IMG/VR virus record: IMGVR_UViG_3300040811_001959
Length of the DNA stretch: 64,000 nucleotides
Source of the DNA: a virus
Taxonomy: Duplodnaviria > Caudoviricetes
Direction: 5' to 3' (one strand)
Positions 2,418 to 48,825 of the stretch are shown in pieces. A model generated the notes under the pieces. That model did not search any database. It saw nothing but the letters and a program-made list of their open reading frames with translations, and was not told where the DNA came from. How positions within the stretch are numbered: the first letter of the stretch is position 1; every line of letters begins with the position of its first letter. The position numbers and the translations under genes were made by a program.

Positions 2418-2774
2418 CTATTCTATGTATAAAATTATATTAGGATATAAAACCATTAAACTTATCCAAAGCCATAATGTATTAAAACTAACAAGCGTAG
2501 GCAACAGTTTTTTATTGCTTGCCCATATTAATGTTGCACTTGTAAATAGACTTAAAAAATATAATTGCCAAATTTGTATTTTCCATAATAGTCCAGGTAT
2601 AATAATAATAGCTTTTGTAAACCAACTTGCAGCTTCGATTATATTATAATTAGTCCAATACTTTTTTGTAAACCATAATTTATAACAATTTATTATTTCC
2701 TTCCACCCAGTAAAGGTGTAGAGTAAAATTGTAAATAATAACCAAATAATAATAATGATAATAACATTAGGCAT
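2418..2774 (-). CDS. Small multi-pass membrane protein
   Basis: 118 aa with about four hydrophobic segments. Confidence 0.6.
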   Translation of the reverse strand: MPNVIIIIIIWLLFTILLYTFTGWKEIINCYKLWFTKKYWTNYNIIEAASWFTKAIIIIPGLLWKIQIWQLYFLSLFTSATLIWASNKKLLPTLVSFNTLWLWISLMVLYPNIILYIE

Positions 2775-3264
2775 AATGTTTTTGTATTTTTTTTGCTTTT
2801 TTATTAGCCATTTTCCAAACTAGTGGGGATACACGATCTTTAAAAGTAATACCCTGTAAGTGATCATATTCGTGCAAAAATACTTTAACACTATAATCTT
2901 TTAAATGTGTTCTTTTCTTTTCTAAGTTTTCATCATAATACTCTACTAGGATTTCTTTTGGTCGTTTTACTTGTGCAAATACATTTGGAAAACTTAAACA
3001 GCCTTCTATGTCAATAACAATTTCTTTTGTGTGCTGAAGTACAACAGGGTTAATTAAAATCGAGTTATTCTCTTTACCGTCTCCCATAACAAACAATTGT
3101 GCATCTAAACCAATCTGATTCGCTGATAATCCAATTCCATTGTTACTTAACATAAATTCTACCATTTCATTTTTTAAGTCTACTGGATTAAAATCTACGT
3201 TATCGATATTAACCGAATTGACTTTTTTAGATAGAAATTCGTCTGGATAATATACAAGTTTCAT
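2767..3264 (-). CDS. def: Peptide deformylase
   Basis: Motifs GIGLSANQIG, EGCLS and HEYDH. Confidence 0.95.
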   Translation of the reverse strand: MKLVYYPDEFLSKKVNSVNIDNVDFNPVDLKNEMVEFMLSNNGIGLSANQIGLDAQLFVMGDGKENNSILINPVVLQHTKEIVIDIEGCLSFPNVFAQVKRPKEILVEYYDENLEKKRTHLKDYSVKVFLHEYDHLQGITFKDRVSPLVWKMANKKAKKIQKHYA

Positions 3265-3965
3265 AGTCTACTTTCTTTAATAATTTGTTTTGCTAATTCT
3301 AAATCTTTTGTTTGTCTTTTAAATTTTAGTGCCCAGTGTTCAGGATCAACAATATGATATATCATTTTTAATTGCTCTTCATTAAATTTATCAAGCATTT
3401 GTTTACCGCTGGTGCTATTTAAAACAATCCAAGGAGAAATTTTTCCATCTTTAATATGATATACAGCTCTGTTTGTACTAACTAAATTAAAATAATGATT
3501 CCATACTGCTGGCGGATTTTCTTCGGCCCATTCAGTCATTGTAAGTACACTACGTTCTAGCGCAGTAGTTACATCTTCTTTTTTAATAAGCTCAATTGCG
3601 TAACGTTCATATAATTCTTCTTTACACCATTGTTCTAACTTCACGCCACTTGTTACAACATAGTCTACATACTTTTCTGGATATAGTGGTTTGACATTGT
3701 TAAGGAAGCTACCAAATTTTACAAAACTGTTGTAGTATGGACTCTTGCAAAATTCTTCATACGTCTTATCTTTCTTAGAGCCCATACTACGTTTGTAAAA
3801 TTGATTAAATGCATAGAAGCCTAACTGTACCCTTTTCTCATCTCGCTGTAACGCTCTGCGTTTCTTTTCGCATAAATGTGCAAAAAGTGTTTTTTCTCGT
3901 GTGTATGATGTGTTACAGTATTCGCAGGTATACTTAGAGTTTGATGTCAAGCGCATGATCCTCAA
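3261..3965 (-). CDS. Hypothetical protein with N-terminal zinc finger (C-x2-C-x12-H-x-C); true start uncertain
   Basis: 'YTCEYCNTSYTREKTLFAHLC'. Confidence 0.65.
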   Translation of the reverse strand: MRIMRLTSNSKYTCEYCNTSYTREKTLFAHLCEKKRRALQRDEKRVQLGFYAFNQFYKRSMGSKKDKTYEEFCKSPYYNSFVKFGSFLNNVKPLYPEKYVDYVVTSGVKLEQWCKEELYERYAIELIKKEDVTTALERSVLTMTEWAEENPPAVWNHYFNLVSTNRAVYHIKDGKISPWIVLNSTSGKQMLDKFNEEQLKMIYHIVDPEHWALKFKRQTKDLELAKQIIKESRL

Positions 3966-4386
3966 TTAGCTGTTTAATTTCATCCTCTGTAGACAATTGA
4001 GCTAGCAATTCAATTTCGTCTGCCTTTCTTTCAGGATAAATTTTTGTAAGTATTTTTTCAAACTTTCCGGTCACGTTTGTGACATTTGATTTTAATCCTT
4101 GCCATTTATGGAATTCTATTTTGCCTGTGTTTCCGCATAAGCATAATAACTGCCATTGTAGTTCCTGATGTGAACTAACAACCATATAGTTTTTGTTATA
4201 GTATTCGTTTGTTTTTAAGACAGCAAGTTCCTGTTTTTCTCTTTTTCCTGCAACACTTGAAGCATATCTATTCATTAACCAAAAGGATATACCTTTTTTA
4301 GATTCGTCATCTAATTCTTTCCAAACAGATTTTGCGCCCATATCAACTGCAGCAAGAATATCTTTTACTGGTAGTTTATTAGCCAT
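3934..4386 (-). CDS. Probable clamp-loader small subunit (T4 gp62-like)
   Basis: 150 aa; 'FWLMNRYAS...QWQLL...FHKW...IYPERK.DEIELL' pattern and location in the replication operon. Confidence 0.5.
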   Translation of the reverse strand: MANKLPVKDILAAVDMGAKSVWKELDDESKKGISFWLMNRYASSVAGKREKQELAVLKTNEYYNKNYMVVSSHQELQWQLLCLCGNTGKIEFHKWQGLKSNVTNVTGKFEKILTKIYPERKADEIELLAQLSTEDEIKQLIEDHALDIKL

Positions 4387-4397
4387 AATATATATTA

Positions 4398-4904
4398 CTA
4401 TATAAGATTACAAAAATCAATGACTTCAGTTTGTCTCGATACATCCTTTACAAAAAAAGCACACAATGGATTATCATCGTTATTTAATGGAACAGATAAA
4501 AGTTGACCATTTTTCATTTTTGGAAAGTACCATTTTACATCATTGTAAAAATTTGTAATTTTTATTTCTCCATAATCTGCTTTAAAACTTTTTAATGGAT
4601 TGAACAAGAATGCATCAAAGCCTCTGTCGTTTAAACTCGTTAAAGGTAGTATTTCTAAATCTTTACCTGTATTACGATCACCCACAGCAATATGCCAATC
4701 AACTGGCATGATAATTTCATTTCCGTTGATATCCATAGCTATAGCAGGACTACTAAAAGATTCTAAAAAGATTAATGGAATAAAAAAGAAATCAGGATCC
4801 GACGGGTCACTGTTATCTAGTACACTAAATCTAAAATCTTCTTCGATTTCATCTGGTAAATTATTAAGATCATAAGTTTTGTTTTCTAATGTAAGTATTC
4901 TCAT
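4398..4904 (-). CDS. Hypothetical protein following UvsW (possible degenerate Hint fold)
   Basis: Intact 168-aa ORF with a 4-nt overlap with the uvsW stop. Confidence 0.55.
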   Translation of the reverse strand: MRILTLENKTYDLNNLPDEIEEDFRFSVLDNSDPSDPDFFFIPLIFLESFSSPAIAMDINGNEIIMPVDWHIAVGDRNTGKDLEILPLTSLNDRGFDAFLFNPLKSFKADYGEIKITNFYNDVKWYFPKMKNGQLLSVPLNNDDNPLCAFFVKDVSRQTEVIDFCNLI

Positions 4905-6364
4905 TGCCAGTCAACCTTTTCTATTGTAAATGGATATTGAGCGTCTCTATAAAATTTTTTCCGCTCTGTTAAATGTCTTTTTGCAAATTTGCAAGTACTA
5001 GTAAAATCCCAAATCTGTACAAAGTCTTTGTCCTTAGCTTTACGAACTCCTCGTCCAATTGATTGTATTACCCGAACAAAACTTTTGCCAGGTTCAATTA
5101 AAACAAGATTAAAAATACGAGGAATATTGATCCCCACAGCAGCAACCCCGTAAGTTGCAACGATAACCATATTGTCTGCATCTTGAATTTCATCATAAGC
5201 TGATTTTCTGTCCTTTAATTTTACATCACCTTTTATAAAAATTGAATTTTCTATACGTTCATGCAAAAGTTCGCCCGCACTAATACGATCAATTAATATA
5301 AGTGTGTTACCAGATTCCTTAATCTTATTTAACATTTTAGCAATGTAGTTTACACGATTTTCTTCGGTTACAAGATATTTTAATTCGCTTTGATAGTCTC
5401 TGTGTGCAACTGTGTCTATTAGCTGTACAATGTTTACATGACAGTTAGACAGTACACCTTTGTCCTGCAATTCTTTAGCTGTAATCTGTCCAATAACAGG
5501 TCCTATACTTGCGTGTAGTGCTTCGAATTCAAAACGTTCTTTAGGCACTGTACCTGTTAGTCCCCAACGTATCGGAGCATTACGTAGGTTGCGTGTAAGC
5601 AAATTCTTCAAGACCTCGGCCTTTGCTTGATGCACTTCGTCAATTATTATTGTGCTTACACCGTCTAAGAACTCTGCAAGTGTCAATACTGCTGTACCGT
5701 CTTTACTTTTCTTATCTAGTATGTTGAGACTTTGCCAAGTGCATATGGTATGTGTTTTGGATAGGTCTTTCCTATCGCCAAAGTATACGCCGCAGTCCAG
5801 CCCGCAATTTCGGTAATCTTCTTCAGTTTGTTGCACAAGAGATTTGTTTGGAACAACGACAAGTGTTCGTCCATATTTTTCCGCTATGTGTGAGAGTGTT
5901 GCGGTGGTAATAGTTTTACCAGCGCCTGTTGCAATCTCCTGTAGAGACTGCGGATTCTTAACAAAATTATTTATAGCTTCTACTTGATAATCTCTTAATA
6001 CAATATCTTCACCTGCTGCAGGATGTCCTTCAGGCCATTTTACTCCTTGTTGTTTCCAATAGTCTTCTGTTATAGGTTGGAAGTCTAGTGTAACAGGATG
6101 CCTGCGATCTTCTATGTCAGAGATCTCTACATTATTGTTTTGCAATATCTCTACGATTGTATTGAGATGATTGACGTATCCTGTACCGCCTATACCAAAA
6201 AATGCTACCTTTCCATCCCATCTACCGAGTTTATACTGCGGCATGTAACGTGCATATGGTACTTCAAATTTAAGTGCATTTGCAAGTTTCCTACGTATCT
6301 CAACTGGAAGTCCTTCTAACTTAATATTGACTTCATCTTCGATAATTAATTTACATGATGTCAT
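4901..6364 (-). CDS. uvsW: UvsW-like SF2 DNA helicase; start revised to 6364 (ATGA overlap)
   Basis: LRDYQ, ATGAGKT, DEVH, GLTGT and QSIGRGVR helicase motifs. Confidence 0.92.
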   Translation of the reverse strand: MTSCKLIIEDEVNIKLEGLPVEIRRKLANALKFEVPYARYMPQYKLGRWDGKVAFFGIGGTGYVNHLNTIVEILQNNNVEISDIEDRRHPVTLDFQPITEDYWKQQGVKWPEGHPAAGEDIVLRDYQVEAINNFVKNPQSLQEIATGAGKTITTATLSHIAEKYGRTLVVVPNKSLVQQTEEDYRNCGLDCGVYFGDRKDLSKTHTICTWQSLNILDKKSKDGTAVLTLAEFLDGVSTIIIDEVHQAKAEVLKNLLTRNLRNAPIRWGLTGTVPKERFEFEALHASIGPVIGQITAKELQDKGVLSNCHVNIVQLIDTVAHRDYQSELKYLVTEENRVNYIAKMLNKIKESGNTLILIDRISAGELLHERIENSIFIKGDVKLKDRKSAYDEIQDADNMVIVATYGVAAVGINIPRIFNLVLIEPGKSFVRVIQSIGRGVRKAKDKDFVQIWDFTSTCKFAKRHLTERKKFYRDAQYPFTIEKVDWQ

Positions 6365-7569
6365 ATTTCTGTTGTTTTTTGATGAATCCAAGTAGTAGGT
6401 TGAGTATCAAAGTGAATGACTAGTTCACATTTATTATAATATGTTGACACAAGTCTGCTATGTCTTATACTAGCTAAAAGTAATGTTGTGGTTGGCTGCC
6501 ATTTACTAATAAGTAAAGGCTTAGGAAGTTTTTCATTATTAATAATAATTACCTGTGTTGCTTCTGTAATTTTGTTATTTAATTTAAACTTTTTTACATT
6601 TTCGTTAAAGTCGATATTATTTCCAGATATGTTGTCTAGTCTAAACAGTACGCTTATGTCTTTTATATCTATGAATTTTTGTAAACTGTCTATCAAATCA
6701 ACTAGATCTTGATTTTCTTGTCCTTTAGATAAAATTACTAACAAAGGAAATCTTTTAAGTTCATTTATTACATTACACACATCAAAAAAAGTATGTATAA
6801 TTTTTGACATGAATATATTTTTATTTTCAAGTTTTGCAATTTTTTCTGCCAATGGCGTAAGCATCGAAAATGATCTATTTAATTCGTTACTATCAAATAA
6901 ATTTAATCCAAGAATATCTTTCCTGTCATAATATAATGCAAGATTTTTTACAGTAGGAACTCCTAAGATTTTTATTGCATATTCTTCAGCAATTTTTGAT
7001 GTATTGACAAATTTATAATTTACAATACCCGGTATAAAATCATTTTTAGACTCAATAAATTTTTGTATAATATTATAAAAATTTAGCAATTCTTCATCAA
7101 TTTCAAAATTACATTCTTTTAATCTATCTACAATTTCAAATACATTCTTCTCATTTAATTTTAAAAAATGAGTTTTCGATTTACTATCATAATCATTCCT
7201 ATCTTGCAAAGATTTTATAAAATTTATATGCTTTATCATTTTATTAGAGTAAGGAAATGTAATTCCTATCATTACTTTCTTTTCATTATCAAATAAAGTA
7301 AACGACTCTTTTTCAACCAAAAAAACTTTTTTAGATCTGTCTATTTCTCTATAGGGATGTCTTAAATTATCTAATCCGTCATTAATATCATAACCATTTT
7401 TTGAGAACTCTTTTTCATATTCTTTTACCTTCTTTTTTGCCAAGGAATGCTGTCTATCAGTTAAACCTATGTTTTTTTTAATTTGACTTGATAAACTAGT
7501 AATTAATTTTCTATCTCGTGTGTCAACATCTAATGTTGATAATATTTCAATATAATCTTCAATAGTCAT
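6361..7569 (-). CDS. Hypothetical protein upstream of UvsW
   Basis: 402-aa intact ORF translationally coupled to uvsW. Confidence 0.6.
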   Translation of the reverse strand: MTIEDYIEILSTLDVDTRDRKLITSLSSQIKKNIGLTDRQHSLAKKKVKEYEKEFSKNGYDINDGLDNLRHPYREIDRSKKVFLVEKESFTLFDNEKKVMIGITFPYSNKMIKHINFIKSLQDRNDYDSKSKTHFLKLNEKNVFEIVDRLKECNFEIDEELLNFYNIIQKFIESKNDFIPGIVNYKFVNTSKIAEEYAIKILGVPTVKNLALYYDRKDILGLNLFDSNELNRSFSMLTPLAEKIAKLENKNIFMSKIIHTFFDVCNVINELKRFPLLVILSKGQENQDLVDLIDSLQKFIDIKDISVLFRLDNISGNNIDFNENVKKFKLNNKITEATQVIIINNEKLPKPLLISKWQPTTTLLLASIRHSRLVSTYYNKCELVIHFDTQPTTWIHQKTTEI

Positions 7570-7597
7570 AAAAATCCTAACAAAATATTATTATATA

Positions 7598-8443
7598 TTA
7601 TTTGAAAGCTTTCGTCAATCTGTTTAATGGTTCGCCGGTACTAATTTCGTCTAAGGTCCATTCAGTATAGCTAAGATCATTTAACCACTGATATCTATCA
7701 GGTTTTGAAGGATTGTTAATTGTTGAAAAATTTTGATTACTTACTTCATATGCAAGGCTAGAAGAACTTGTAAAAATTGGGATTCCGTTCATTGCTGCCA
7801 GGATTGCAGGATTACTACTGTGATTTACAAGTGCTGTGTAATTTTCAAATATCAAATCATAATCATCATAAGTGTTGAATAATTTTTTTGGATACTGAAT
7901 TTTAACATTTTTAAAACCTGCTAAATCAATTCTTATAGGGTTACGAGGATGGGGACGTACTACTATCTCTTTATCAGTATGCATCCTTAAAGATTTAATT
8001 GTGTCATTAATATAATTCCTTCCATGATTAATATCTTTCCATTGTCCACTTTTTAGATGTTGGCATGCAATTAGTATAGGTCCGGTATTAGTTTTCCAAT
8101 CATGTAGTTTCAAATTTAATTTTTTTACACGTTGATCATTATTAAGTTTTTCTCCAAAATATGCATCTCTATTAACACCATTTACTGCAACTTTCCATGT
8201 AGTACCACGCCTAAAGCATCCTATCTCTAAGACAATAATTGGCTTATTTTTTTGTCTACATCTGTCCCAAATAAGTTTATTCTTCGTCATCCTTCCGGAC
8301 CAAAGTACACTCCATATAACTTCAATATCAGATTCCATATTTAAACATACAGAGTATCCAAGTTTTTTTACTCCTTGGGCAAATGCTTCAAATACAGGTT
8401 TAGAATTTAATGCTCCGTTTGCTGTCCAAAGTCCAAATTTCAT
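7598..8443 (-). CDS. Capsule-biosynthesis (KpsC/KpsS-like, GT-B) glycosyltransferase
   Basis: 'ILIACQ', 'VVRPHP', 'NHSSNPAILAAMNGIPIF'; paralog of 10037..10951. Confidence 0.65.
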   Translation of the reverse strand: MKFGLWTANGALNSKPVFEAFAQGVKKLGYSVCLNMESDIEVIWSVLWSGRMTKNKLIWDRCRQKNKPIIVLEIGCFRRGTTWKVAVNGVNRDAYFGEKLNNDQRVKKLNLKLHDWKTNTGPILIACQHLKSGQWKDINHGRNYINDTIKSLRMHTDKEIVVRPHPRNPIRIDLAGFKNVKIQYPKKLFNTYDDYDLIFENYTALVNHSSNPAILAAMNGIPIFTSSSSLAYEVSNQNFSTINNPSKPDRYQWLNDLSYTEWTLDEISTGEPLNRLTKAFK

Positions 8444-8445
8444 TG

Positions 8446-8468
8446 TTAAATACCTTTATACTATTTAA
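8446..8468. promoter_or_regulatory. Pair of TTAAATA late-promoter-like boxes, one per strand, between divergent glycosyltransferase genes
   Basis: TTAAATA at + 8446-8452 and at - 8462-8468. Confidence 0.35.
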
Positions 8469-8481
8469 GAAAGATTTGCCT

Positions 8482-9318
8482 ATGAAAAATATTTTAGCTG
8501 TTACAACTTTTAATAAAGAAGGTTTAGATTTGTATGGACAAAGATTCCTAAACTCTTTTGCAGAAAATGTAGACAAGGAAATACGATTGATTTGTTATGC
8601 AGAAAAATGCCAACCAGAAAATCCTAGCCCAAACAACATTTTAATTTTAGATCAGGAGGAAGCCCTGCCAGATTTAGTTAGATTTAAAAAGACATGGCAG
8701 GATGTTCCAATGGCAACTGGCACCTGTCCGTGGCCTCAACGGCGTCCGAGAGATCATCACAAAACTTTTAAATGGGATGCAATAAGATTTTCCAATAAAG
8801 TTTATGCAGTGTTTGATGCTTGTGAAAGAGCAGAAGATTGGTGCGTATGGATAGATGCAGACTCTTATGTTCATAGTCCGTGGTCATATGAAGAATTTAG
8901 TTCTATACTACCAGATAATGTTTGGTTAACATATGTAGGTAGAGGAAAAGCATCTGCGACATGGCCTGAATGTGGATTTTATGGTTTAAAAGTATCTGAT
9001 GCAAAATGTAGACAATTTGTTGCGAATTTTAAATACATGTATGAAAATGCCAACATAGGAATTTTTAAATTAGAAGAATGGCACGACAGTTATGTATTTG
9101 GTCATGTATTAGATAAATTTAAACAAATGTATCCAGACATGCACGATTACACTAAAGACATGATGTTAAAGCAGGCAAGTACAGGCGGAGGAGGTCATCC
9201 TCTAATTAATACTGTTCTTGGAAAATGGATTGATCATTTAAAAGGTGACAGAAAAAGATTACAAAAAAGTAAAAAGAATGACTTGACTGTACATCGAGCA
9301 GAAAAGTATTGGAACTAA
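8482..9318 (+). CDS. GT-A glycosyltransferase; start revised to 8482
   Basis: 'TTF..EG..LYG', 'FSNK', 'WIDAD', 'ECGF', 'HDSYVF'. Confidence 0.75.
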   Translation: MKNILAVTTFNKEGLDLYGQRFLNSFAENVDKEIRLICYAEKCQPENPSPNNILILDQEEALPDLVRFKKTWQDVPMATGTCPWPQRRPRDHHKTFKWDAIRFSNKVYAVFDACERAEDWCVWIDADSYVHSPWSYEEFSSILPDNVWLTYVGRGKASATWPECGFYGLKVSDAKCRQFVANFKYMYENANIGIFKLEEWHDSYVFGHVLDKFKQMYPDMHDYTKDMMLKQASTGGGGHPLINTVLGKWIDHLKGDRKRLQKSKKNDLTVHRAEKYWN

Positions 9319-10040
9319 TCTGTTAATTTAAAGCGTTTTTCTAATATTTCATTATCAACTCCGTCTTTCGCTCCAGCTTTCATGTGATCAATGTATGGAG
9401 CTAAAACACTTTTTGGAATTGGAGTTTTAAGTTTATGTAGATTTAAGTTCAACATTTTATTACCTTTTGCTTCCAAAAGTTCTACGGTCTTACCATAGAC
9501 TTCACCGTCGTAAAATCTGCGTAGTCCGTGATACTTGTCATTTACATAAATGTCTCTATATGTATCAACAAATTCTTGGAAAGCTGGATGTTTTTTGTTA
9601 AGTATAAAAAATCCTGTTTCGCAACTATGGAAAATTTTTCCATCAACGTCATGCCACACTGAAAAATGTGTACTCAACACATCCTCTGGTGCAATTAGAT
9701 TTAAAAGTTGGTCTGGTATGTCTGTTTTTATAATTGTATCAGCATCAATCCAAATTAATCTATCGCAATCTATTTCTGCACAGCCTTTTATGATCGACCA
9801 TGCTTTTTTAGAAAATTGTTTAACTTTCTTATTTTGATGCCTAGCTTGGAAATCCCAATATTCTTTTGGCATATGCCATCCCATAGATACAATAGTTTTT
9901 ACCTTAACTTCAAAATCTCCTTCATTGTATACATGCATAGGAGTATGAGCTGACCAACCATGTTTATAACTTCTTAACATAGCTCTACCTACATGATCAT
10001 AGTAGGCTCTATTCATGCTTGTTACTGCTGCAAAATTCAT
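9315..10040 (-). CDS. GT-A glycosyltransferase (paralog of 8482..9318)
   Basis: 'FSKK', 'WIDAD', 'ETGF', 'YDGEV'. Confidence 0.75.
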   Translation of the reverse strand: MNFAAVTSMNRAYYDHVGRAMLRSYKHGWSAHTPMHVYNEGDFEVKVKTIVSMGWHMPKEYWDFQARHQNKKVKQFSKKAWSIIKGCAEIDCDRLIWIDADTIIKTDIPDQLLNLIAPEDVLSTHFSVWHDVDGKIFHSCETGFFILNKKHPAFQEFVDTYRDIYVNDKYHGLRRFYDGEVYGKTVELLEAKGNKMLNLNLHKLKTPIPKSVLAPYIDHMKAGAKDGVDNEILEKRFKLTD

Positions 10041-10951
10041 ATATATTCCTTAATTATATTCCATGCTATTCCGTTTTTTAAATCAGCAAAATTAAAATGA
10101 CACATTGCAATTTTTTCAATCCATTCCTGTCGGTCGGGCAAAAGCGGACTTTCAATAAATTTTAAATCTGTATTACATATATCAAATGCTTGACTATCTT
10201 GTGGTACCGGATCTGTTACAAATACAGGAATTCCCTCAATTGCACTAGCTACTCCAGGACTGCTATTATAAGTTATGCATGCCCACGCATTTTTTAAATC
10301 ATCTTGTAGTAATTCATTTTTACTTTTTTTTACTCTATATTTCCAAATTAATTGATCTAAATTAAACTTACGATCGCCTGGATGCCCTCTTACAATTATT
10401 GGCCGGGTGGTGTACGAACGTAAATTTTTAATAACCCAATCAAACCATTCTATAATAGGTTTTCCTTTCATTGACCAACCGCCATTTCTTTGTAAACAAA
10501 TTAATATATGTTCTCCTTGTAATCTCCAAGGTTGTAAATCTATATTATAATCTTTTTTAATTTGTTGCCATCTTTCTGGTAAAATTGTTTTAGTAAAATA
10601 ATTTCCTGTTGTAGGAAATACGTCATTTAAACTAAATCTTAAATAATTTGAGGAATTTGATTTATCTAAATATAAAAATAAATTACTATCTACTGTAAGG
10701 GTTTGTTTACCTATTTTTTTTTGAGAAGCAATAATTTCTTTTCTAAACATCAAATGTGGAGTTCTTCCTGAATCTTTATGTACCCATCCTTGTATGACCG
10801 CTAAGTCAGCTGGTTCCCACGATCTTGTACGAATTTCTTTACTTTGAGCATCTACACCAACTCCAATATGAAAATTTGTTAGAACCAAAGATTTTTCTTT
10901 TTTTGTGTTAGAAGAAGGAATACCCCCATAATAAACCCTAACTTGTTTCAT
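10037..10951 (-). CDS. Capsule-biosynthesis-like GT-B glycosyltransferase
   Basis: 'ILICLQ', 'IVRGHP', 'YNSSPGVASAIEGIPVF'. Confidence 0.65.
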   Translation of the reverse strand: MKQVRVYYGGIPSSNTKKEKSLVLTNFHIGVGVDAQSKEIRTRSWEPADLAVIQGWVHKDSGRTPHLMFRKEIIASQKKIGKQTLTVDSNLFLYLDKSNSSNYLRFSLNDVFPTTGNYFTKTILPERWQQIKKDYNIDLQPWRLQGEHILICLQRNGGWSMKGKPIIEWFDWVIKNLRSYTTRPIIVRGHPGDRKFNLDQLIWKYRVKKSKNELLQDDLKNAWACITYNSSPGVASAIEGIPVFVTDPVPQDSQAFDICNTDLKFIESPLLPDRQEWIEKIAMCHFNFADLKNGIAWNIIKEYI

Positions 10952-11657
10952 AGTCTATTGTGTCTGTTCTTAAAAAATCTTTGCCAGTCATGTCCTTATA
11001 TTCATTACACCATTCGACTGAAAGATGCTGCATATAATATTTGTTAAACCAAGGTCCGCCTTCTGTATAATGTATAAGTTTAGGAGGTCCGTCATGATTA
11101 TAATAATGACCAACTAAGTAATTCCATTCATGATGTAGTGTGCCTATTTCAATGTCTTTTAGCCAACTAAACCTATGGAAGTATGCACCATCTTTTGTTT
11201 CGTCATTTACTAACTCTTTAGTCAAAATTTTATTACTAGGATGACCACAGTTAAATAACATTACACTAGACCAATTTTTTCTAGGATATCTAGACTGGGT
11301 TCTACCATCCATTTTCATTGTATGTGTTGGATGAAATTTGTGTTTAACAACCATTACAGCATATTGATCATCTGCTAATTCAAATAATTCTGTAATGTCT
11401 GATTGTAAAAGCATGTCGCAATCTATAAATAATGCCCAACCTTTGTGTTCCATTAACGCAGGTACAAGGAACCGTGTAAATGTAAATTCAGTAGAAGCTA
11501 ATTTATCTATAGGACGAGTGTACCAATTTTCTGCTTCAAGATCTTTTTTTATTAAAGGTTGTATGATTACATCTGGAGTTCTTTTTAAAATGCTATGCTT
11601 GCAAACTTGATAAGCAATGTCTTCTCTTGGATCGTAACCAATAAATATTTTTTTCAT
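10938..11657 (-). CDS. GT8-like glycosyltransferase
   Basis: 'IFIGYDPRE', 'STEFTFTRFLVP', 'FIDCDML', 'NWSS', 'HYTEGGPW'. Confidence 0.8.
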   Translation of the reverse strand: MKKIFIGYDPREDIAYQVCKHSILKRTPDVIIQPLIKKDLEAENWYTRPIDKLASTEFTFTRFLVPALMEHKGWALFIDCDMLLQSDITELFELADDQYAVMVVKHKFHPTHTMKMDGRTQSRYPRKNWSSVMLFNCGHPSNKILTKELVNDETKDGAYFHRFSWLKDIEIGTLHHEWNYLVGHYYNHDGPPKLIHYTEGGPWFNKYYMQHLSVEWCNEYKDMTGKDFLRTDTIDYETS

Positions 11658-12199
11658 AAATTAAATTTTAATTCGCATGTATGATACTTATCGCACTTGT
11701 ATAGAGTTTTAAATATTTCTACCTCAGGAGGAAGCAATATTTTTACAAAATCGCTATTCTTATATTTTCTTATTCTTATGTCAAAAATATATTTTGTATC
11801 GTCATGGCTATGTTTTTTTATAAATTCGTAGTAAGTATTTAAAGGATAATGGAATCCGCAAGACATAAAGGAAGTAATCAAATCAAATTTTATTGAATCC
11901 TCTAAATCTAAATTATCAGCATCTACTAGATGGTACTCGGTATCTTTAAAAATTATTTTTTGTTTTTCAACAAGTTTTTCTTTTATCCAGTAATGGGCAA
12001 AATTTGCAGCATCTGCATTCCATTTTGCTTTTACGGGATTAATTTTTAAATTATTATTTCTTGCATCTCCTTCTATTATCCAAACTTTAGAACTAAATTT
12101 ATCAGCTAAAATTTTAGCTTTGTGTCCATTGCCTCCGCCGATATCGCATAGTTTGTTAAATTTAAAATTATTAAAATGATCGAGTACTTCTTCTAACAT
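11654..12199 (-). CDS. Class I SAM-dependent methyltransferase
   Basis: 'LCDIGGGNG', 'FDLITSFMSCGFHY'. Confidence 0.7.
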   Translation of the reverse strand: MLEEVLDHFNNFKFNKLCDIGGGNGHKAKILADKFSSKVWIIEGDARNNNLKINPVKAKWNADAANFAHYWIKEKLVEKQKIIFKDTEYHLVDADNLDLEDSIKFDLITSFMSCGFHYPLNTYYEFIKKHSHDDTKYIFDIRIRKYKNSDFVKILLPPEVEIFKTLYKCDKYHTCELKFNL

Positions 12200-12220
12200 G
12201 TGCTACCTTTCGTTATATGT

Positions 12221-12234
12221 GTATTTAATAAATA
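12221..12234. promoter_or_regulatory. Overlapping divergent late-promoter boxes (- TTAAATA; + ATAAATA 4 nt before ATG 12239)
   Basis: 'gtatttaataaatatagtATG'. Confidence 0.5.
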
Positions 12235-12238
12235 TAGT

Positions 12239-13012
12239 ATGCAAAATGTTACAGTTGTCTGGAGAGCATGCGATGCTAGGTTTGGAGTTCATGCAAAAGA
12301 TAGATTTTTTTCAAATAGTAAAACAGAAGTTTCTATAACTTGTTTCCAAAGTTTTTATAATTCATTTAAAAATTATTTAGATAGAACTAAGTTTGTAATT
12401 ATCCTAGACCGTCCTAGTCAAAAATTATTAAATTTTTATAAAACAATAGATGCAAAAATTGTAAATTATATAGGAGATTCTAAAGGAGGATTACGACAAA
12501 ATATCCAAACAAGTTTACAAGAAGCCTATAATGTAACAACAGATTGGGTATGGATACAAGAAGATGATTATTTATTTGTAGAAAATGCTGCTGAGAGTTT
12601 TTTTAATCTCATTGATAATAAAAATAGAATACTAAAACAAAAAAATGATAAAATTAATTTAATCATCTATCCAGCTGACTATAGCGATAGATATATTAGA
12701 ACACAGGACGGCAGGAGTAGATATCAATTATTTTTAGGTGATTACGGATATTGGAGAGAGATTCACAATACAACTTTTTCTTGGTGCATTAAAACTGCAA
12801 ATTTAAATCTATTAAAAGACCAATTCCAGCAGATGTTTGTTGAAAGAAGGTATAAGAATTTCGACAGTTATTTAAGCGAAGAAATTTGGAAAGACAGTTT
12901 GATTGTTAGTCCTTTACCAAGTTTAAGTTTCCATTTAGATACGCATGTTAAACCTCCTCCGTGTATAGATTGGAAAGGATTATGGAATAAAAATGTTCAT
13001 GTATGTGTGTGA
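12239..13012 (+). CDS. GT2-like glycosyltransferase; start revised to 12239
   Basis: 'WVWIQEDDYL' motif, C-terminal 'SFH'. Confidence 0.65.
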   Translation: MQNVTVVWRACDARFGVHAKDRFFSNSKTEVSITCFQSFYNSFKNYLDRTKFVIILDRPSQKLLNFYKTIDAKIVNYIGDSKGGLRQNIQTSLQEAYNVTTDWVWIQEDDYLFVENAAESFFNLIDNKNRILKQKNDKINLIIYPADYSDRYIRTQDGRSRYQLFLGDYGYWREIHNTTFSWCIKTANLNLLKDQFQQMFVERRYKNFDSYLSEEIWKDSLIVSPLPSLSFHLDTHVKPPPCIDWKGLWNKNVHVCV

Positions 13013-13571
13013 CTGGTTTGCTAAACACAGAGCTAAAGAAAATGGTTACTTCGTAGAAATTGGCGCCTATACTGGTAAAACTCAAAATTCTACATTTGTA
13101 TTAGAAAAAAAAGGATGGCATGGATTGTGTTTTGAGCCAGTATATGGTAATTTTAGGAAACTAAAAAAAAGAAGGAAATGCGAATGTATAAATGCCGCTG
13201 TGTATGATTACACTGGGGAAATAGAATTTGTCGAAGTAGATATTTCAGGTTGGGGAGGTATTAGTGAATCTCATCAACCAAAACATAAAGAAAGATATAT
13301 AAATTCCACAAAAAAATATTCTGTACCATGCATAGCGTTTAATGATGCAGTAAAATTACAAAATATAAATTATTTACAGATAGATGTAGAAGGAGCAGAA
13401 TCAAAAATATTAAAATCTATAGATTGGAATTTTTATAATATAGATTATATTTGTATAGAAGATAACCTGCGAGTTGAAACAAAGGATAGTTACTACAGTA
13501 ATTTGATGAAAGATTTAGGATATAAAGAGATTTATTTTGAAAAGAAAGATTTTTTATATGAAAAAATCTAA
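12993..13571 (+). CDS. FkbM-family methyltransferase
   Basis: 'FVEIGAY.G...NS', 'CFEP', 'LQIDVEGAE'. Confidence 0.88.
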   Translation: MFMYVCDWFAKHRAKENGYFVEIGAYTGKTQNSTFVLEKKGWHGLCFEPVYGNFRKLKKRRKCECINAAVYDYTGEIEFVEVDISGWGGISESHQPKHKERYINSTKKYSVPCIAFNDAVKLQNINYLQIDVEGAESKILKSIDWNFYNIDYICIEDNLRVETKDSYYSNLMKDLGYKEIYFEKKDFLYEKI

Positions 13572-14049
13572 ACCTTATATGAAAAGTAAAGAATGGAATT
13601 TTTTAATTTCACATCTAAATTCAGAAGATATAATGTTAGAGTACGGAAGCGGTTCATCAACAACTCTGCTAGGACCCTTGGTAAAAAAATTAGTAAGTCT
13701 TGAACATGATAAAAAATGGTATGAAAAGGTTTTAAATGAAAATAATCTTGCTAATGTTGAATTGTGTTTTGTACCTCCAGATAGTCCAAGGACTATACCT
13801 ACACAAAAAGAACAGTTTCTATCCTACATAAATTGGGTTACAACTAGGAAAGAAATATTTACAAAAGTTTTAATTGATGGTCGTGCTAGGCAATGGTGTG
13901 CAGAGTCAATTTTAGATAATTTAGCAGAAAATCATTTAGTATTTCTTCATGATTATAATTTAATTGAACGTCCTTATTACCAAAGAGTTTTAAATTTTTA
14001 TGAGATAATAGATAAATGTCACACTATGATAATGTTACAAAAGAAGTAG
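13537..14049 (+). CDS. SAM-dependent methyltransferase (probable start near 13558)
   Basis: 'LEYGSGSST', 'SLEHD..W', 'LIDGRAR', 'FLHDY'. Confidence 0.75.
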   Translation: MKRKIFYMKKSKPYMKSKEWNFLISHLNSEDIMLEYGSGSSTTLLGPLVKKLVSLEHDKKWYEKVLNENNLANVELCFVPPDSPRTIPTQKEQFLSYINWVTTRKEIFTKVLIDGRARQWCAESILDNLAENHLVFLHDYNLIERPYYQRVLNFYEIIDKCHTMIMLQKK

Positions 14050-14771
14050 TCCTTGCTACTACATTTAGTGAAAATGGTTATAATAAGTACGGTAAATCTT
14101 GGATTGAAAGTGTTAAAAAATATTGGTCTCCGAACATCAATGTACATTTATATTTAGATTTTACAGTTCCAAACTTACCATCAAATTTTAAAATCTTATC
14201 TTTTAAAAGAAATTTTTCTACGATTCAAAAAAATTTAATTGAAAGGGTTAACGATCATTATAAGGATTCTAAAGGAAAAGGTTTAGTTATTAAAGATAAA
14301 ACAATTAAATTCAGTCATAAAATGTTTGTTGTATTAAATGAAATTAAAAACGTATCTTTGAAAAATTTTGTTTGGTTAGACGGAGATGTTGAAACGATAG
14401 ATTTTGTAGATAAAAACTTTATTTTAAAAATAAATGACGGTAAGTTTTTAGGTTGTCAAACAGAAAAACAAACACATAGATATCCGCATATAGAAAGTGG
14501 CATATTAATTTTTGATTTAGCAAATCAACATGTAAAACAATTTTATTCTTTGTTGAAATTATTTTATACGTCGGATTATTTGTTTAAATTAAAAAAACCA
14601 TATGACGGATATGTAATTGGTTTTATCCTAAAAAAATATAAGTTTTCTTTTTATGATTTTAACAAAGGATTAAAAATTGTAGGTAAAACAAGTCATGCAG
14701 ATGAGACATTTCAACACCCTCTTTTGCAAGAAAAATTTGTACATAATATAGGAGATAGGAAAAATTTATAA
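14016..14771 (+). CDS. GT-A glycosyltransferase (third paralog of 8482..9318)
   Basis: 'TTFSENGY..YG', 'FSHK', 'WLDGD', 'ESGI', 'YDGYV'. Confidence 0.7.
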   Translation: MSHYDNVTKEVVLATTFSENGYNKYGKSWIESVKKYWSPNINVHLYLDFTVPNLPSNFKILSFKRNFSTIQKNLIERVNDHYKDSKGKGLVIKDKTIKFSHKMFVVLNEIKNVSLKNFVWLDGDVETIDFVDKNFILKINDGKFLGCQTEKQTHRYPHIESGILIFDLANQHVKQFYSLLKLFYTSDYLFKLKKPYDGYVIGFILKKYKFSFYDFNKGLKIVGKTSHADETFQHPLLQEKFVHNIGDRKNL

Positions 14772-15221
14772 ACTTGCATCTTCCATTCCTGCTACCCTTA
14801 GCTTAACAATGTTAGTAATTTGCCATTGTTTCTGATCGAGACCTTTTAGTATTCCTAACCATTTATTCCTTAATAAAGCAAACTCGTTAACTATCTTTTC
14901 AAAATCAACCACATCTAGTTCTCCGTCTACATACTTTTCAACATCACGACTAGACAATGCTCGTTGATAATTTTCTAAATATTTTTTAAAATAACTGCTA
15001 CGTAATTTCCTCAGTTCAATATTCAGATAGTTTAATATAGCTTCTATTTCTTGCAATTGATTAAAACGATGTTCTACAATTCCTGGAAGTTCTGCAGCAA
15101 GTTTTTCAACATTACCTTTAACTTTGCATTCAAGTTTTGCATCTCTTAATTCAGTTTCAAAATGCAATATAGCATCCGGAATTTTTCCAATGTCTCTTGC
15201 AACTTCGCTATACCAACCCAT
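14766..15221 (-). CDS. uvsY: UvsY recombination mediator
   Basis: Helical 151 aa; 'KKYLENYQRALSSRDVEKYVDGE...KQWQI' adjacent to uvsX. Confidence 0.8.
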   Translation of the reverse strand: MGWYSEVARDIGKIPDAILHFETELRDAKLECKVKGNVEKLAAELPGIVEHRFNQLQEIEAILNYLNIELRKLRSSYFKKYLENYQRALSSRDVEKYVDGELDVVDFEKIVNEFALLRNKWLGILKGLDQKQWQITNIVKLRVAGMEDASL

Positions 15222-15442: not shown

Positions 15443-16496
15443 TTTCTATAATCTCCTCTTCCATAGATGGAGTATTTATGTCTTTTTGTTTTTTTGGATA
15501 GTCTTGCATAACCATATCTAACAGTTCGCCAGTCCAATTTTTACGATATTCTTTGTGCTCATTTCCTTCACTATCGATGTAACGCAATCTATTTCCGTCC
15601 TTAACAAGATGACCTTGTTTTTCAAATAGGTCAACAAGACCACTATACGGATTCATTCCAGTTTCATAAGGAATCTTAACTTGCACTCCTTCAAACGGTT
15701 TTGCATAACGTGTTTTCATTACCTTACAAGCTGCACGGATACCTTGTACTTCAGAGGTTTTGTTACCATCTTCATCTTCTTTTAGTTTAAGTTTCTTCAT
15801 TGCAACTACAATACTACTTGCATAGATAAAACCTTGTCCGCCTGAAATTTTATCATCAGGATCAAACATATCTTGACTTGCGTATGTGTGATTAGTTGCT
15901 ACAAGTCCTACATTATGACTGCCGAACATGTTTACACAATTCCTTACAAGTGCAGTAAGTGCTTTAGGTTTCCTACCCATATCACCTTTAAGATCGCCCT
16001 TGCCAAATTGATCAACATCAGTTGGTGTTAGTAACATGCCTAAACTGTCGATAACAAACAATACCTTAGGTTTGTCTTCTCCTTCAAGATTTTTGTAATC
16101 ATCAATAAAGACTGAGATAGTTTTAGCTACATCATCAATCATACTCATATTAAGCTTTAGTAGCTTTTTTTCGCTTGTATCAACATTTAATTTCCTAAGC
16201 CAGTCTTCGTCAAGTGCATTTTCACTGTCAATGAGCACAACAAAAATGTCTTGGTCTTGTGCTGCTTTTACAATGTTACCTGCACAGATATAGCTCTTAC
16301 CTGCACCGGACTCTCCTGCAAACACACTCACTTTGCCTAATGGAATGCCTTTGTGAAAATCTCCTGAGATAAGATAATTTAATGCATAGTTGCCAGTTGA
16401 TATCCAATCAGTTGGATCATTAAAACCAGCACTCATGCCTGTGATAGATTTTGTTAATTGTGTTCTAAATTTACTTGGATCAAATGCTTTTGCCAT
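15399..16496 (-). CDS. uvsX: UvsX/RecA-like recombinase
   Basis: Walker A GESGAGKS, Walker B VIDSLG, 'ISGGQG'. Confidence 0.93.
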   Translation of the reverse strand: MAKAFDPSKFRTQLTKSITGMSAGFNDPTDWISTGNYALNYLISGDFHKGIPLGKVSVFAGESGAGKSYICAGNIVKAAQDQDIFVVLIDSENALDEDWLRKLNVDTSEKKLLKLNMSMIDDVAKTISVFIDDYKNLEGEDKPKVLFVIDSLGMLLTPTDVDQFGKGDLKGDMGRKPKALTALVRNCVNMFGSHNVGLVATNHTYASQDMFDPDDKISGGQGFIYASSIVVAMKKLKLKEDEDGNKTSEVQGIRAACKVMKTRYAKPFEGVQVKIPYETGMNPYSGLVDLFEKQGHLVKDGNRLRYIDSEGNEHKEYRKNWTGELLDMVMQDYPKKQKDINTPSMEEEIIENDGTTDSRDLEPVS

Positions 16497-40428: not shown

Positions 40429-40866
40429 ATGAAAGAAATAGTTTGTAGTGGGGCGCTAATTTACAGTAAAAAAGAAAAAAGGTTTTTATTTTTGCATAGG
40501 ACAAAAGGCAAAAATAAAAACTTTTGGGGGTTAGTGGGTGGTATTACCGAAAAAGAAGAAACTCCTTGGACTGGCTTGCAAAGAGAAATTGTTGAAGAAA
40601 TTGGTCCTATTAGTATTTGTAAAAGTATACCATTAGAAACTTTTGTAAGTAATGACAATCATTTTCATTTTTATACCTATCTCTGTTTAGTAGAAGAAGA
40701 ATTTATTCCGCAATTAAACGATGAACATGATGGGTATGCATGGACATCATTATCAAAATGGCCTAGACCGCTACATCCTGGTCTTAGAAATACCTTAAGT
40801 GTTAAAATTAATCAAGTAAAATTAGAAACAGTAATTAAATTATTAGATTTATTAGCAAGTACCTAA
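40429..40866 (+). CDS. NUDIX hydrolase
   Basis: Nudix box GGITEKEETPWTGLQREIVEEIG. Confidence 0.9.
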   Translation: MKEIVCSGALIYSKKEKRFLFLHRTKGKNKNFWGLVGGITEKEETPWTGLQREIVEEIGPISICKSIPLETFVSNDNHFHFYTYLCLVEEEFIPQLNDEHDGYAWTSLSKWPRPLHPGLRNTLSVKINQVKLETVIKLLDLLAST

Positions 40867-41453
40867 ACCTTTAACTGTGTCATTGACTGGTTGTTTACTA
40901 TTCCTCTGATAAAAGTATTAAAAGATAAACTAATCCTAGGTAAATCTGATACATTTGGCGTAACTAGATGTTCTAAATTGCTAGGAAAAATTAATATTGT
41001 TCCCGGATCAGGGCAAAAAGTCATAGATTTAGCATTAAATAAATTTGGAGTTTCAATTTCATATTCAAGAGTTTGATATTGTCCAGTGATAAAATTTAAT
41101 AATCCAGTATCTTTATCGGCCTGTAATATAACTATACCTGAATAAACAGAATTAGGATGCCAATGTCTATGGTGCATTTGATCTCTAATAGATTTGTTAA
41201 GCCAACTTTCTGTTATATAAATTTCAGTCTGTTTTTTGACACTTAAAACATCATAAAAATAATCTTGTAAAGAAAGCATTACTTGCTCTTTGAGTATTGA
41301 AAATTCTGGCATTTCTAACACGTCGGTGCTCGTGCTTATAAAATTGTTATAATTTTCTGCCCATACAATATTATCAAGATTGACACTATCTATATCTATA
41401 CGTCCCTCGTATAATGGTTGGCTAAAAAGCGGATGAATACCTAATTCATTCAT
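40863..41453 (-). CDS. Fe(II)/2OG oxygenase-like (TIGR02466-type, HxH)
   Basis: 'HWHPNSVYSGI', 'FPSNLEHLV', 'RISLSFN'. Confidence 0.8.
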   Translation of the reverse strand: MNELGIHPLFSQPLYEGRIDIDSVNLDNIVWAENYNNFISTSTDVLEMPEFSILKEQVMLSLQDYFYDVLSVKKQTEIYITESWLNKSIRDQMHHRHWHPNSVYSGIVILQADKDTGLLNFITGQYQTLEYEIETPNLFNAKSMTFCPDPGTILIFPSNLEHLVTPNVSDLPRISLSFNTFIRGIVNNQSMTQLKV

Positions 41454-41483
41454 ATTGTTTTCCTTTTATTATATATACTTTAT

Positions 41484-41840
41484 ATGGAAGAAAAAGTTAA
41501 AAAAACTGATTGGGGATACGAATTAATATGGGCATCACATCCTACCTATACGGGAAAAATTTTAGTATTCGAAGGTTTAAATGCTCGTACAGATATGTAT
41601 CTTCATAAAACAAAAAATAAAAGTTTGTTTGTAAATAGTGGAAAATTTAAAATTAGATGGATTGAAACCAGTAATGGCGAAATTAAAGAAGTAGAATTTC
41701 TAGAAGGTAATACTTTTGATGTTCCTGCAATGATGCCAATACAAATTTGCAGTCTAGCATACAATGGATCGATTGCAGAAGTTTCTGATAACAATCAAGA
41801 CGATGTTTGTATAATTTTACAATCAAAAAATATTGGATAA
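41484..41840 (+). CDS. Cupin protein (mannose-6-phosphate isomerase type II-like)
   Basis: 'KKTDWGYE..W', 'GKIL', 'HKTK'. Confidence 0.6.
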   Translation: MEEKVKKTDWGYELIWASHPTYTGKILVFEGLNARTDMYLHKTKNKSLFVNSGKFKIRWIETSNGEIKEVEFLEGNTFDVPAMMPIQICSLAYNGSIAEVSDNNQDDVCIILQSKNIG

Positions 41841-41843
41841 ATT

Positions 41844-42119
41844 ATGTTGCCTTCTTTACAAAATTCGTCTAATGTTAGAAATAATTTAGCTAGGTACAGT
41901 CATAAAATACAATATATTAAAAATATTAAAGCAAAAAATAAAGCACTTATAGCCTTAGAAAATTTAAAAAATGCTATCGCAGATATTGAACAAGCTCATC
42001 GAATTAGAACTTCAGGCGATTTACGTCCAAATTTGTTTGATTACCACAGAGAAAAAATTTTTTTATTTAGAAAAGAAATTGAAAAATTAATTAAAGAAAA
42101 TACTCAAAAGAAAAAATGA
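41844..42119 (+). CDS. Hypothetical helical protein
   Basis: 91-aa ORF in operon. Confidence 0.5.
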   Translation: MLPSLQNSSNVRNNLARYSHKIQYIKNIKAKNKALIALENLKNAIADIEQAHRIRTSGDLRPNLFDYHREKIFLFRKEIEKLIKENTQKKK

Positions 42120-42940
42120 TATTTAAATCAAAAAAAAAATGGGTTAGATTTTATTGTTTAGACGAAAATGTTGCAACATTATATCCTTTAATTAAATCAA
42201 AAGCAGTAATTCGAAACTGGAATAATTTAGCAAGCACAGAAAGGAATCGTCCTGAACAAGGATCACAGACTGTTTTAAATTGTCCTGCTATTAAATTAGT
42301 AAAAGATTTTGGATATGTATTAACTGCTCCTGCAGATTTTGTTATAAAATCTGGAGATGAGTCTGCTTATTTTTCCTGGGAAACACCTTTTATATTTAAA
42401 AGGTCAAGTGAACGGTATACTTTTGGGGGTACCGATTATTACATCGATTGGCATAGTCATGCTCAGGTTGAACCAATTATTCCAAAGAGCAATACCCAAG
42501 TTAATAAACCATATTTACACACTGCAGTAAAAGTAGAAACTCCATGGAGGATAAAGGCAAGCAGTGATATAGTTTTATTACAAATTCCTGTTACATACAA
42601 TAATGAAGAAAGATTTACTGCTGCTATAGGAATCGTTGATCCAGAATATATGCATGCGGTCACTGTACAGTTGTTTTGGCATGTAACTAACAGCGAAACA
42701 CTTGTAAGAGCAGGAACTCCACTAGCACAATATGTTCCAATTCATAGGAACTTTTTAGAAAAAAACAGTATAGATTTTATTGTGGATAAAGCTACAGATG
42801 TAGAAAAAGAACTAGAAGATGCGTATGCCTTTGCCAATCATAGCAGATTTCCTCGGACGGATACTGCAAACAATAAAATTAAAATTATAAAAAATTTGTT
42901 CAACTATTTTAGAAAAAAATATCCTAAACAAAAGATTTAA
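42116..42940 (+). CDS. Hypothetical protein, possibly dUTPase-like beta fold; paralog of 55289..56077
   Basis: 'NCPAI...GYVLTAPADF', 'ETPWR', 'AGTPLAQYVPI'. Confidence 0.55.
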   Translation: MIFKSKKKWVRFYCLDENVATLYPLIKSKAVIRNWNNLASTERNRPEQGSQTVLNCPAIKLVKDFGYVLTAPADFVIKSGDESAYFSWETPFIFKRSSERYTFGGTDYYIDWHSHAQVEPIIPKSNTQVNKPYLHTAVKVETPWRIKASSDIVLLQIPVTYNNEERFTAAIGIVDPEYMHAVTVQLFWHVTNSETLVRAGTPLAQYVPIHRNFLEKNSIDFIVDKATDVEKELEDAYAFANHSRFPRTDTANNKIKIIKNLFNYFRKKYPKQKI

Positions 42941-42942
42941 AA

Positions 42943-43521
42943 ATGAAAATAGAAAATTCGGTTGGTATTTTTGATAACGTTTTAAACACAGACGAATGCA
43001 AAAAAATAATTGATCAATACAATTTATTAGCAGGACTTAATTTATCTTTTAATCGTATAGATTTAGGTTCTTTTGATAGTCATAGAATTAAAGATAACGC
43101 TGTATTTTTACTAGAAGAAAAATCTATGCGTCTTTTGCCTACAATGGATTTTTTAGAAACTTTTTTGAATAAATTTTGGAATTGTTACAAACAATACACA
43201 GATCATTATAGTGTTATAAAAGAAGCAGGTAATCATTATATTAGATCAATGAAATTACAAAAAACTCTACCAGGCGAAGGTTATCATATATGGCATTTTG
43301 AAAATGATAGTGCCGAAAAGTGCTCTAGATTGTGTGCGTGGGGATTATATTTAAATACAATAAATGACGGCGGAGAAACAGAATTCCTTTATCAAAGTAT
43401 GCGGGTTTCTGCGTTAGAAGGAAGGTTAATATTATGGCCTGCAACCTACACGCATACTCACAGAGGAAATCCTCCTTTAAAAGGAGAAAAATATTTACTA
43501 ACAGGTTGGCTAGAGTACTAA
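42943..43521 (+). CDS. Prolyl-4-hydroxylase-like Fe(II)/2OG oxygenase
   Basis: 'YHIWHFE', 'GGETEF', 'HTHRG', 'KYLLTGW'. Confidence 0.88.
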   Translation: MKIENSVGIFDNVLNTDECKKIIDQYNLLAGLNLSFNRIDLGSFDSHRIKDNAVFLLEEKSMRLLPTMDFLETFLNKFWNCYKQYTDHYSVIKEAGNHYIRSMKLQKTLPGEGYHIWHFENDSAEKCSRLCAWGLYLNTINDGGETEFLYQSMRVSALEGRLILWPATYTHTHRGNPPLKGEKYLLTGWLEY

Positions 43522-48615: not shown

Positions 48616-48621
48616 AAAATA

Positions 48622-48825
48622 ATGAATTACTATGTAAAAATAATTAGGGTTCCAGAGCTAGAGAATACAGCTCAAAAAATGAATATTAAAAAAGTTTATG
48701 CAAAAGCTAACACAATTGCAGACGCAGAAATTATATTTGAGAAGGCATATCATCCTAAATATACAATAGCAGGTCCAAATAGAATAGATTCTGTTCCTAG
48801 TGGAGAATCAATTTTACAATTATAA
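48622..48825 (+). CDS. Small hypothetical protein
   Basis: 67-aa ORF with AAGG RBS. Confidence 0.5.
   Translation: MNYYVKIIRVPELENTAQKMNIKKVYAKANTIADAEIIFEKAYHPKYTIAGPNRIDSVPSGESILQL

Follow-up and report, generated by a model that had tools for sequence, protein, structure and literature searches.

A strain-variable glycan island with late-type promoters in a marine jumbo phage lineage, and its proposed role on the virion

Introduction

Which molecule would receive the sugars of a glycan locus that is embedded in the replication module of a phage? The question is posed by an island of ten genes, of glycosyltransferase (GT) and methyltransferase type, in a stretch of 64,000 nucleotides (hereafter the window) from virus record IMGVR_UViG_3300040811_001959, which spans 144,118 bases with a completeness estimate of 39%. 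Judged by its terminase, which is nearest to those of PA5oct-like jumbo phages (54%), and by its UvsY, with 53-54% identity to PA5oct and Atu_ph07, the source genome is a fragment of an uncultured marine jumbo phage related to PA5oct. Glycan clusters in phages are already known, as is the glycosylation of virions, and such clusters in marine phages are commonly classed as auxiliary metabolic genes that modify the host, with no test of this role. An earlier note on the window had read the island as a complete pathway for glycan assembly and capping, taking its location to suggest DNA glycosylation and its late-box-like motifs to suggest glycosylation of the virion or remodelling of the host for superinfection exclusion.

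Here we propose, with a probability of roughly 0.6, that the island would be a late glycan locus that coats the virion, with virion proteins as its most likely target. We favour the virion because the enzymes appear to be soluble, the promoter box is like that of the terminase gene, the locus turns over among strains, and a related module in Caulobacter phages is located by tail and endolysin genes.

Results

A fixed site with a constant core and exchangeable accessory genes

All ten open reading frames (ORFs) of the earlier note were found in place (Table 1), and gene calling on an independent assembly recovered them as well. Four of them constitute a core, namely the GT-A enzyme A1, the GT-B proteins B1 and B2 and a GT8-like enzyme, while the other six are accessory. 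We compared the best 80 island loci, to which all counts out of 80 refer; relatives of A1 in IMG/VR numbered 428. In all 59 of these loci that reached both flanks, the island was located between uvsY and a gene for a 402-amino-acid protein, and it contained 6-14 genes with a median of 8. When loci were collected independently by way of UvsY, the gene directly downstream was of island type in 66 of 69, and the whole four-gene core was present in 16 of the 17 that were complete. In PA5oct, uvsY and uvsW are separated by 12 bases, with neither the island nor the 402-amino-acid gene between them. A recent single horizontal insertion was ruled out, since the locus is near-universal among the UvsY-anchored relatives.

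The placement of the island inside the UvsW-UvsY module holds with one correction, which is that the 402-amino-acid gene separates it from uvsW. This gene has a GC content of 24.6%, is fast-evolving and often exchanged along with B1, and shows only 44-50% identity in phages whose UvsW proteins are 96-99% identical.

Turnover was high also among the closest relatives. Of the phages with UvsY proteins 95-100% and UvsX proteins 97-99% identical to those of the source genome, a single one (L001) had all ten genes; in the others, most accessory genes were replaced and the B1 and B2 alleles were mostly 45-60% identical. The accessory pool included methyltransferases, sulfotransferases, GT25 enzymes, polysaccharide pyruvyltransferases, GDP-mannose dehydratase, epimerases and cytidine monophosphate (CMP)-sugar synthetases, families whose chemistry is that of surface glycans, and this combination of core and turnover resembles, by analogy, O-antigen and capsule loci. 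Most relatives also encoded a third, more degenerate GT-B paralog, which was free in 34 of 80 loci and in another 33 fused to the GT8-like protein; 53 of the 80 had a gene for a cytidylyltransferase-cupin. The source genome has neither. A second variable site (window 3934-4904) is empty in the source genome and holds kdsA, kdsB, an epimerase, a UDP-sugar dehydrogenase-like gene and other genes in many relatives. Of 35 relatives, 23 had kdsB at this site near uvsW, in most cases together with kdsA; neither gene was found in the source fragment.

Late-type boxes in the island and a different promoter class in its flanks

The island genes form four transcription units that start from two divergent junctions, and a TAAATA box is located no more than 35 bases from the head of each unit. 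The joint chance of four boxes at both junctions was about 1e-4 in a composition shuffle, which bears out the divergent pairs with late-box-like motifs reported earlier. For the relatives, we scored a box within 60 bases upstream of the gene start. TAAATA preceded A1 in 49 of 74 cases, B1 in 38 of 69 and the terminase gene in 22 of 28, against a background of 3.5%, and the counts rose to 36 of 39 (A1) and 27 of 31 (B1) where the gene heads its unit. Upstream of replication genes the box was rare (uvsX, 2/89; uvsY, 1/111; gp32, 1/74; uvsW, 1/51), and in 54 of 55 relatives a sigma-70 promoter close to the consensus preceded the 402-amino-acid gene and uvsW (background 3%). Over the whole genome, sigma-70 matches were no more numerous than expected by chance (73 versus 62 +/- 8), and the sigma-70 claim refers to the conserved site at 7590-7618 alone. 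All 12 structural genes inspected in the source genome had a late box; this set was picked after the data were seen, and the terminase control in the relatives is the fair test.

We infer that TAAATA is a late promoter from the gp55 boxes of T4 and from its position before virion genes. By these motif counts, the island sits inside the replication module but is of a separate promoter class. A further TAAATA (15473-15478, minus strand) is located in the 3'-terminal part of uvsX, shortly upstream of a 70-amino-acid gene, and recurs in 33 of 72 relatives; it could give late read-through into uvsY and the co-oriented island genes.

The promoter classes bear directly on the suggestion that phage DNA receives a methylated oligosaccharide as a hypermodification prior to packaging, an idea for which the position between uvsY and uvsW had been the argument. 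That position gives no support to DNA glycosylation because the flanking replication genes use another promoter class; moreover, one arm of the island runs antisense to uvsY, and related modules in unrelated phages are located by tail and lysis genes. Phage enzymes of the GT-A and GT-B types are nevertheless known to add as many as three sugars to DNA, late timing would agree with modification before packaging, and multiple GTs near replication genes are shared with the T4 AGT/BGT, the C5-methyltransferase/5mYOX and the RB69/DLP3 ThyS-type arabinosylation systems. However, known systems cluster their GTs with a C5-methylase and a 5mYOX/TET enzyme or with a thymidylate-synthase homologue, and no such base-hydroxylating partner was found here. 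Tet_JBP (0/10), ThyA-family (0/6) and C5-methylase (0/5) matches were absent from the clade records, most of which are fragments and which for this search were 21-72% complete, leaving some room for missed genes. The complete genomes of Mosig, C2 and Colossus, which carry related modules, likewise had no Tet_JBP or ThyA-family match. Stenotrophomonas phage DLP6 does combine a GT8-like gene with a gene for a Tet_JBP-domain protein (L094; KU682439.2:27833-28279, E 1e-20), located about 88 kb away and far from the GT cluster. The island further differs from the DNA-glycosylating systems in its GT-B subtype and its pool of sulfo-, pyruvyl- and methyltransferases. T4 BGT and AGT were not among the top 50 fold matches of B1, which is not an exclusion. 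The record also still avoids palindromes, with observed-to-expected ratios of 0.17 for CGCG, 0.60 for GGCC and a mean of 0.76 for 6-mer palindromes, which argues weakly in the same direction. We consider phage DNA a very improbable acceptor.

Soluble enzymes and the choice of acceptor

No transmembrane segments were predicted from hydropathy in the ten island proteins, and the same method, applied to 772 island ORFs, turned up three doubtful membrane proteins and no clear one. Together with the TAAATA box common to the terminase gene, this suggests soluble GTs that are expressed with the structural genes. Genes for nucleotide-sugar synthesis, priming, flippase and export were absent from the island, as were two genes common in relatives, and the description as a complete assembly and capping pathway is not supported. 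A locus that builds and decorates a glycan under late-type promoters, on the other hand, is supported.

In the Caulobacter phages C2 and Colossus, a related module of two B-type genes and a GT8-like gene is located between tail and endolysin genes; literature searches returned no paper on it. Mycobacteriophages, in which capsid and tail-tube subunits are glycosylated (as cited in PMC12619734), provide a precedent for such targets.

We envisage that the four short units would yield soluble cytoplasmic enzymes late in infection, the timing being that of their promoter class. The constant core of A1, the GT8-like enzyme, B1 and B2 would use nucleotide sugars, probably host-derived in the source phage, to build an inner glycan that is conserved; CMP-activated 3-deoxy-D-manno-octulosonate (CMP-Kdo), for one, could come from a Gram-negative host. 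The swappable accessory GTs and methyltransferases may then extend and cap this glycan, giving each strain its own glycotype, and the acceptor would most likely be one or more virion proteins.

Alternatively, the enzymes could act at the inner membrane on intermediates linked to lipid, remodel the lipopolysaccharide (LPS) or capsule of the host and so alter the receptors of the infected cell or its recognition by grazers. The KpsC fold of B1, the Kdo-pathway genes in relatives and the LPS-type accessory families all fit such a role, O-antigen GTs are often soluble or peripheral, and host modification is what has been proposed for the pelagimyophage and cyanophage clusters, in proposals that lack an experimental test. 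Against this stands the absence from the islands of a flippase, a GtrABC-type membrane GT, a polymerase and an exporter; serotype conversion of the gtrABC type uses a membrane flippase and a polytopic periplasmic GT, which the island proteins do not resemble. The promoters are late-type, whereas the imm and sp exclusion systems of T4 act early, and the late boxes and all-soluble enzymes fit poorly with the superinfection exclusion that the earlier note had suggested, although host remodelling as such is retained here as an alternative. The module is also present in phages of hosts as unrelated as Caulobacter and Pelagibacter, which better suits an acceptor made by the phage. On balance, a host-surface target is unlikely.

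A third explanation is that the locus makes a glycan, either free or anchored to lipid, or a small glycoconjugate, for release at lysis, or that it modifies non-virion proteins; the product would then serve as a decoy or signal and form no coat. Every enzyme would be soluble and late, the locus has no acceptor gene linked to it, and the natural acceptor of KpsC is a glycolipid primer. Literature searches yielded no precedent, however, and the strong strain turnover would most simply reflect an exposed, recognised surface. We hold this explanation to be improbable, too.

Several points weigh against a glycan on the virion. Neither the glycan nor its acceptor has been observed, and TAAATA is a putative late promoter in the clade; the PA5oct paper gives only sigma-70-like motifs (PMC7318152). 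A search of the structural proteins for Ser/Thr-rich acceptor tails brought up no outstanding case, and no obvious C-terminal extension of this kind was seen on the capsid or tail-tube proteins. Similar clusters have been published as host O-chain modification (PMC7029224, PMC12801897). The model of A1 has a GT-A fold and its best match was the capsid GT A64R of PBCV-1 (PDB 2P6W, Z 13.7), a likeness seen at the level of the fold. We rejected this match as evidence for a capsid acceptor; it does not discriminate between acceptors because the score of BoGT6a is practically tied (Z 13.1) and because phage GT-As that modify DNA also match A64R (10.1101/2023.12.21.572611).

KpsC-fold proteins that lack the nucleophile

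B1 and B2 are paralogs (27% identity, E 2e-15). The four best fold matches of the B1 model were two KpsC modules (Z 14.0 and 12.7), WbbB (11.7) and KrkA (10.6), and the alignment to KpsC (6MGB) covered 229 residues at a root mean square deviation of 3.6. The reduced GT-B fold of KpsC is accordingly predicted for B1 from its model and for B2 from homology to B1. In KpsC-type enzymes, the nucleophile is the Asp of an invariant QxxxD motif, and an HP motif is shared with inverting CMP-sialic acid transferases (PMC10148158). The HP motif is retained and invariant in both proteins (H165-P166 in B1, H190-P191 in B2), and E73, Q128, S132, H165 and P166 are invariant across 27 orthologs of B1. The Asp, by contrast, is replaced by Ser in B1 (QHLKS) and by Gly in B2 (QRNGG), as mapped by sequence alignment to the accessory paralogs and not by residue-level superposition on KpsC.

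Distinct GT-B sequences from the islands fell into classes with Q-Ser-HP (B1, 75 sequences), Q-Gly-HP (B2, 84) and Q-Asp-HP (accessory, 38), with about 90 further sequences that had neither Q nor HP. One QxxxD accessory paralog matched Capsule_synth (PF05159) weakly (E 0.003, below the cut-off), while a Pfam scan gave no match to this family for B1 or B2, and the B alignment, run as a profile against PDB sequences, gave none at all. The prediction of a B1:B2 complex scored 0.00, which is evidence neither way.

The two KpsC/KpsS-like GT-B paralogs of the earlier note are upheld in paralogy and fold and not in catalytic motif. Compared with KpsC/KpsS (GT107), WbbB (GT99) and KrkA, which are retaining beta-Kdo transferases, B1 keeps the fold, the HP motif, the motif Gln and an invariant acidic residue, which in the B proteins occupies the place of the general base, and capsule export genes are missing from its surroundings. 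Because the nucleophile Asp is missing, B1 and B2 are placed outside GT107 on their sequences despite the KpsC fold. A CMP-activated acidic sugar is still a possible donor because kdsB is found near uvsW in relatives, and B1 and B2 would probably handle such a Kdo-like sugar by a route other than that of KpsC, or act as binding subunits; inverting transfer and a role other than catalysis are hypotheses. The Asp-less KpsC-fold proteins may represent a new glycosyltransferase family, and literature searches found no paper on them or on the locus.

GT-A enzymes and methyltransferases

Paralogy of the three GT-A enzymes was confirmed, with WIDAD, WIDAD and WLDGD motifs in A1, A2 and A3 and 24% identity of the other two to A1 (E values of 1e-9 and 1e-11). 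Among the ten proteins, only two passed curated cut-offs. The GT8-like protein belongs by sequence to GT8 (PF01501, 29.1 bits against a cut-off of 24.3), as noted earlier, with its DxD in the form of FIDCD; its cellular homologues are rare (5 genome loci), and it presumably resembles the plant Cdi (At1g64980) galactosyltransferase family of rhamnogalacturonan II. The FkbM protein is a family member by both PF05050 and TIGR01444. Of the three S-adenosylmethionine-dependent methyltransferases claimed, the other two are weaker than thought: MT1 matched Methyltransf_23 (PF13489) below the cut-off, and the likeness of MT3 to Methyltransf_24 comes from Atlas features and structure only. The GT2-like G2 stays a lead only, with PF00535 on 30% of one Atlas cluster and no Pfam match of its own. 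Scans of Pfam, PHROGs, NCBIfam and PADLOC gave no name to A1-A3, B1, B2, G2 or MT3.

Table 1. The island and its flanks, in window coordinates; the starts of A1, G2 and MT3 are corrected likely starts
Feature	Position	Strand	Support or remark
UvsW-like helicase, flank	4901..6391	-	
402-amino-acid gene, left flank, no confident family	6361..7569	-	
Sigma-70 promoter TTGACG-17-TATAAT, overlaps B1 stop (left boundary)	7590..7618	-	starts the operon from 6361 to uvsW
B1, core KpsC-fold GT-B protein (Glu73, QxxxS in place of QxxxD, HP)	7598..8443	-	model pLDDT 95
Divergent TAAATA late-type box pair	A1 box 8447-8452 (+), B1 box 8462-8467 (-)		conserved in relatives; putative function
A1, core GT-A glycosyltransferase (WIDAD)	8482..9318	+	model pLDDT 92; most conserved island gene
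A2, accessory GT-A paralog of A1	9315..10040	-	orthologs in a minority of relatives
B2, core KpsC-like GT-B paralog (Asp88, QxxxG, HP)	10037..10951	-	homology to B1
GT8-like core GT-A enzyme	10938..11657	-	PF01501 E 9.5e-7
MT1, accessory class I methyltransferase (weak)	11654..12199	-	PF13489 E 7.5e-5, below cut-off
Divergent TAAATA box pair	MT1 box 12222-12227 (-), G2 box 12229-12234 (+)		
G2, accessory probable GT-A/GT2-like protein (lead only)	12239..13012	+	Atlas feature match 0.98
FkbM-family methyltransferase, accessory	12993..13571	+	PF05050 E 2e-15; TIGR01444 above cut-off
MT3, accessory class I methyltransferase, Methyltransf_24-like	13558..14049	+	Atlas features and structure
A3, accessory GT-A paralog of A1 (WLDGD)	14016..14771	+	24.5% GC; converges on uvsY
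UvsY, right flank	14766..15221	-	phrog_231 E 7.7e-16

Other features of the window

An AT-rich region (40863-57674) contains about 25 genes that by eye resemble 2-oxoglutarate-Fe(II) oxygenases and four flavin halogenase-like proteins. Two ORFs look like pieces of a family C (DnaE-type) DNA polymerase, one at 1853-2416 and the other, of 547 amino acids, some 6-7 kb upstream of the window. Downstream of the tail-fibre genes, three Gly-rich paralogs of 285-287 amino acids are arranged in tandem (58208-60806), and a peptide deformylase (PF01327) is encoded at 2767-3264.

Discussion

The closest published counterparts are the clusters for 'cell-wall synthesis and modification' or LPS-like functions of pelagimyophages and T4-like cyanophages (PMC7029224; S-SCSM2R, PMC12801897). 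Like the island, these combine a GT8-like gene with other GTs, methyltransferases, epimerases and kdsA/kdsB in large marine myophages, and Mosig has homologues of A1, B1 and the GT8-like gene together. The island differs in its fixed site, four-gene core, KpsC-fold paralogs, late-type boxes and PA5oct-related lineage. This analysis adds the swapping at strain level, the near-universal presence by the UvsY anchor, the lack of the island at the PA5oct site, the motif-class counts, the contrast between sigma-70 promoter and late boxes, and cultured phages as test systems.

Virion glycosylation in mycobacteriophages (Freeman 2023, as cited in PMC12619734) and the chlorovirus PBCV-1 shares with the island the use of virus-encoded soluble GTs, which in those viruses act on structural proteins. 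PBCV-1 also methyl-caps its glycan. The island, known here from its genes, has a larger and strain-variable enzyme set with KpsC-fold proteins, of which the 38 accessory sequences in relatives retain the KpsC-type QxxxD. A more specific and quite tentative version of the virion proposal is that the virions of the clade carry a methylated acidic glycan of Kdo type, made by nucleophile-less KpsC-fold enzymes with undescribed chemistry, and that exchange of cassettes gives rise to phage 'serotypes' similar to those of O-antigens.

The core and accessory layout and the promoter class point to a strain-variable structure that is owned by the phage. Since cultured phages of Caulobacter and Pelagibacter carry the related module, the question can be tested. 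If the glycan is located on the virion, a widespread lineage of ocean phages would have glycosylation as a core trait, which could affect adsorption, grazing and decay.

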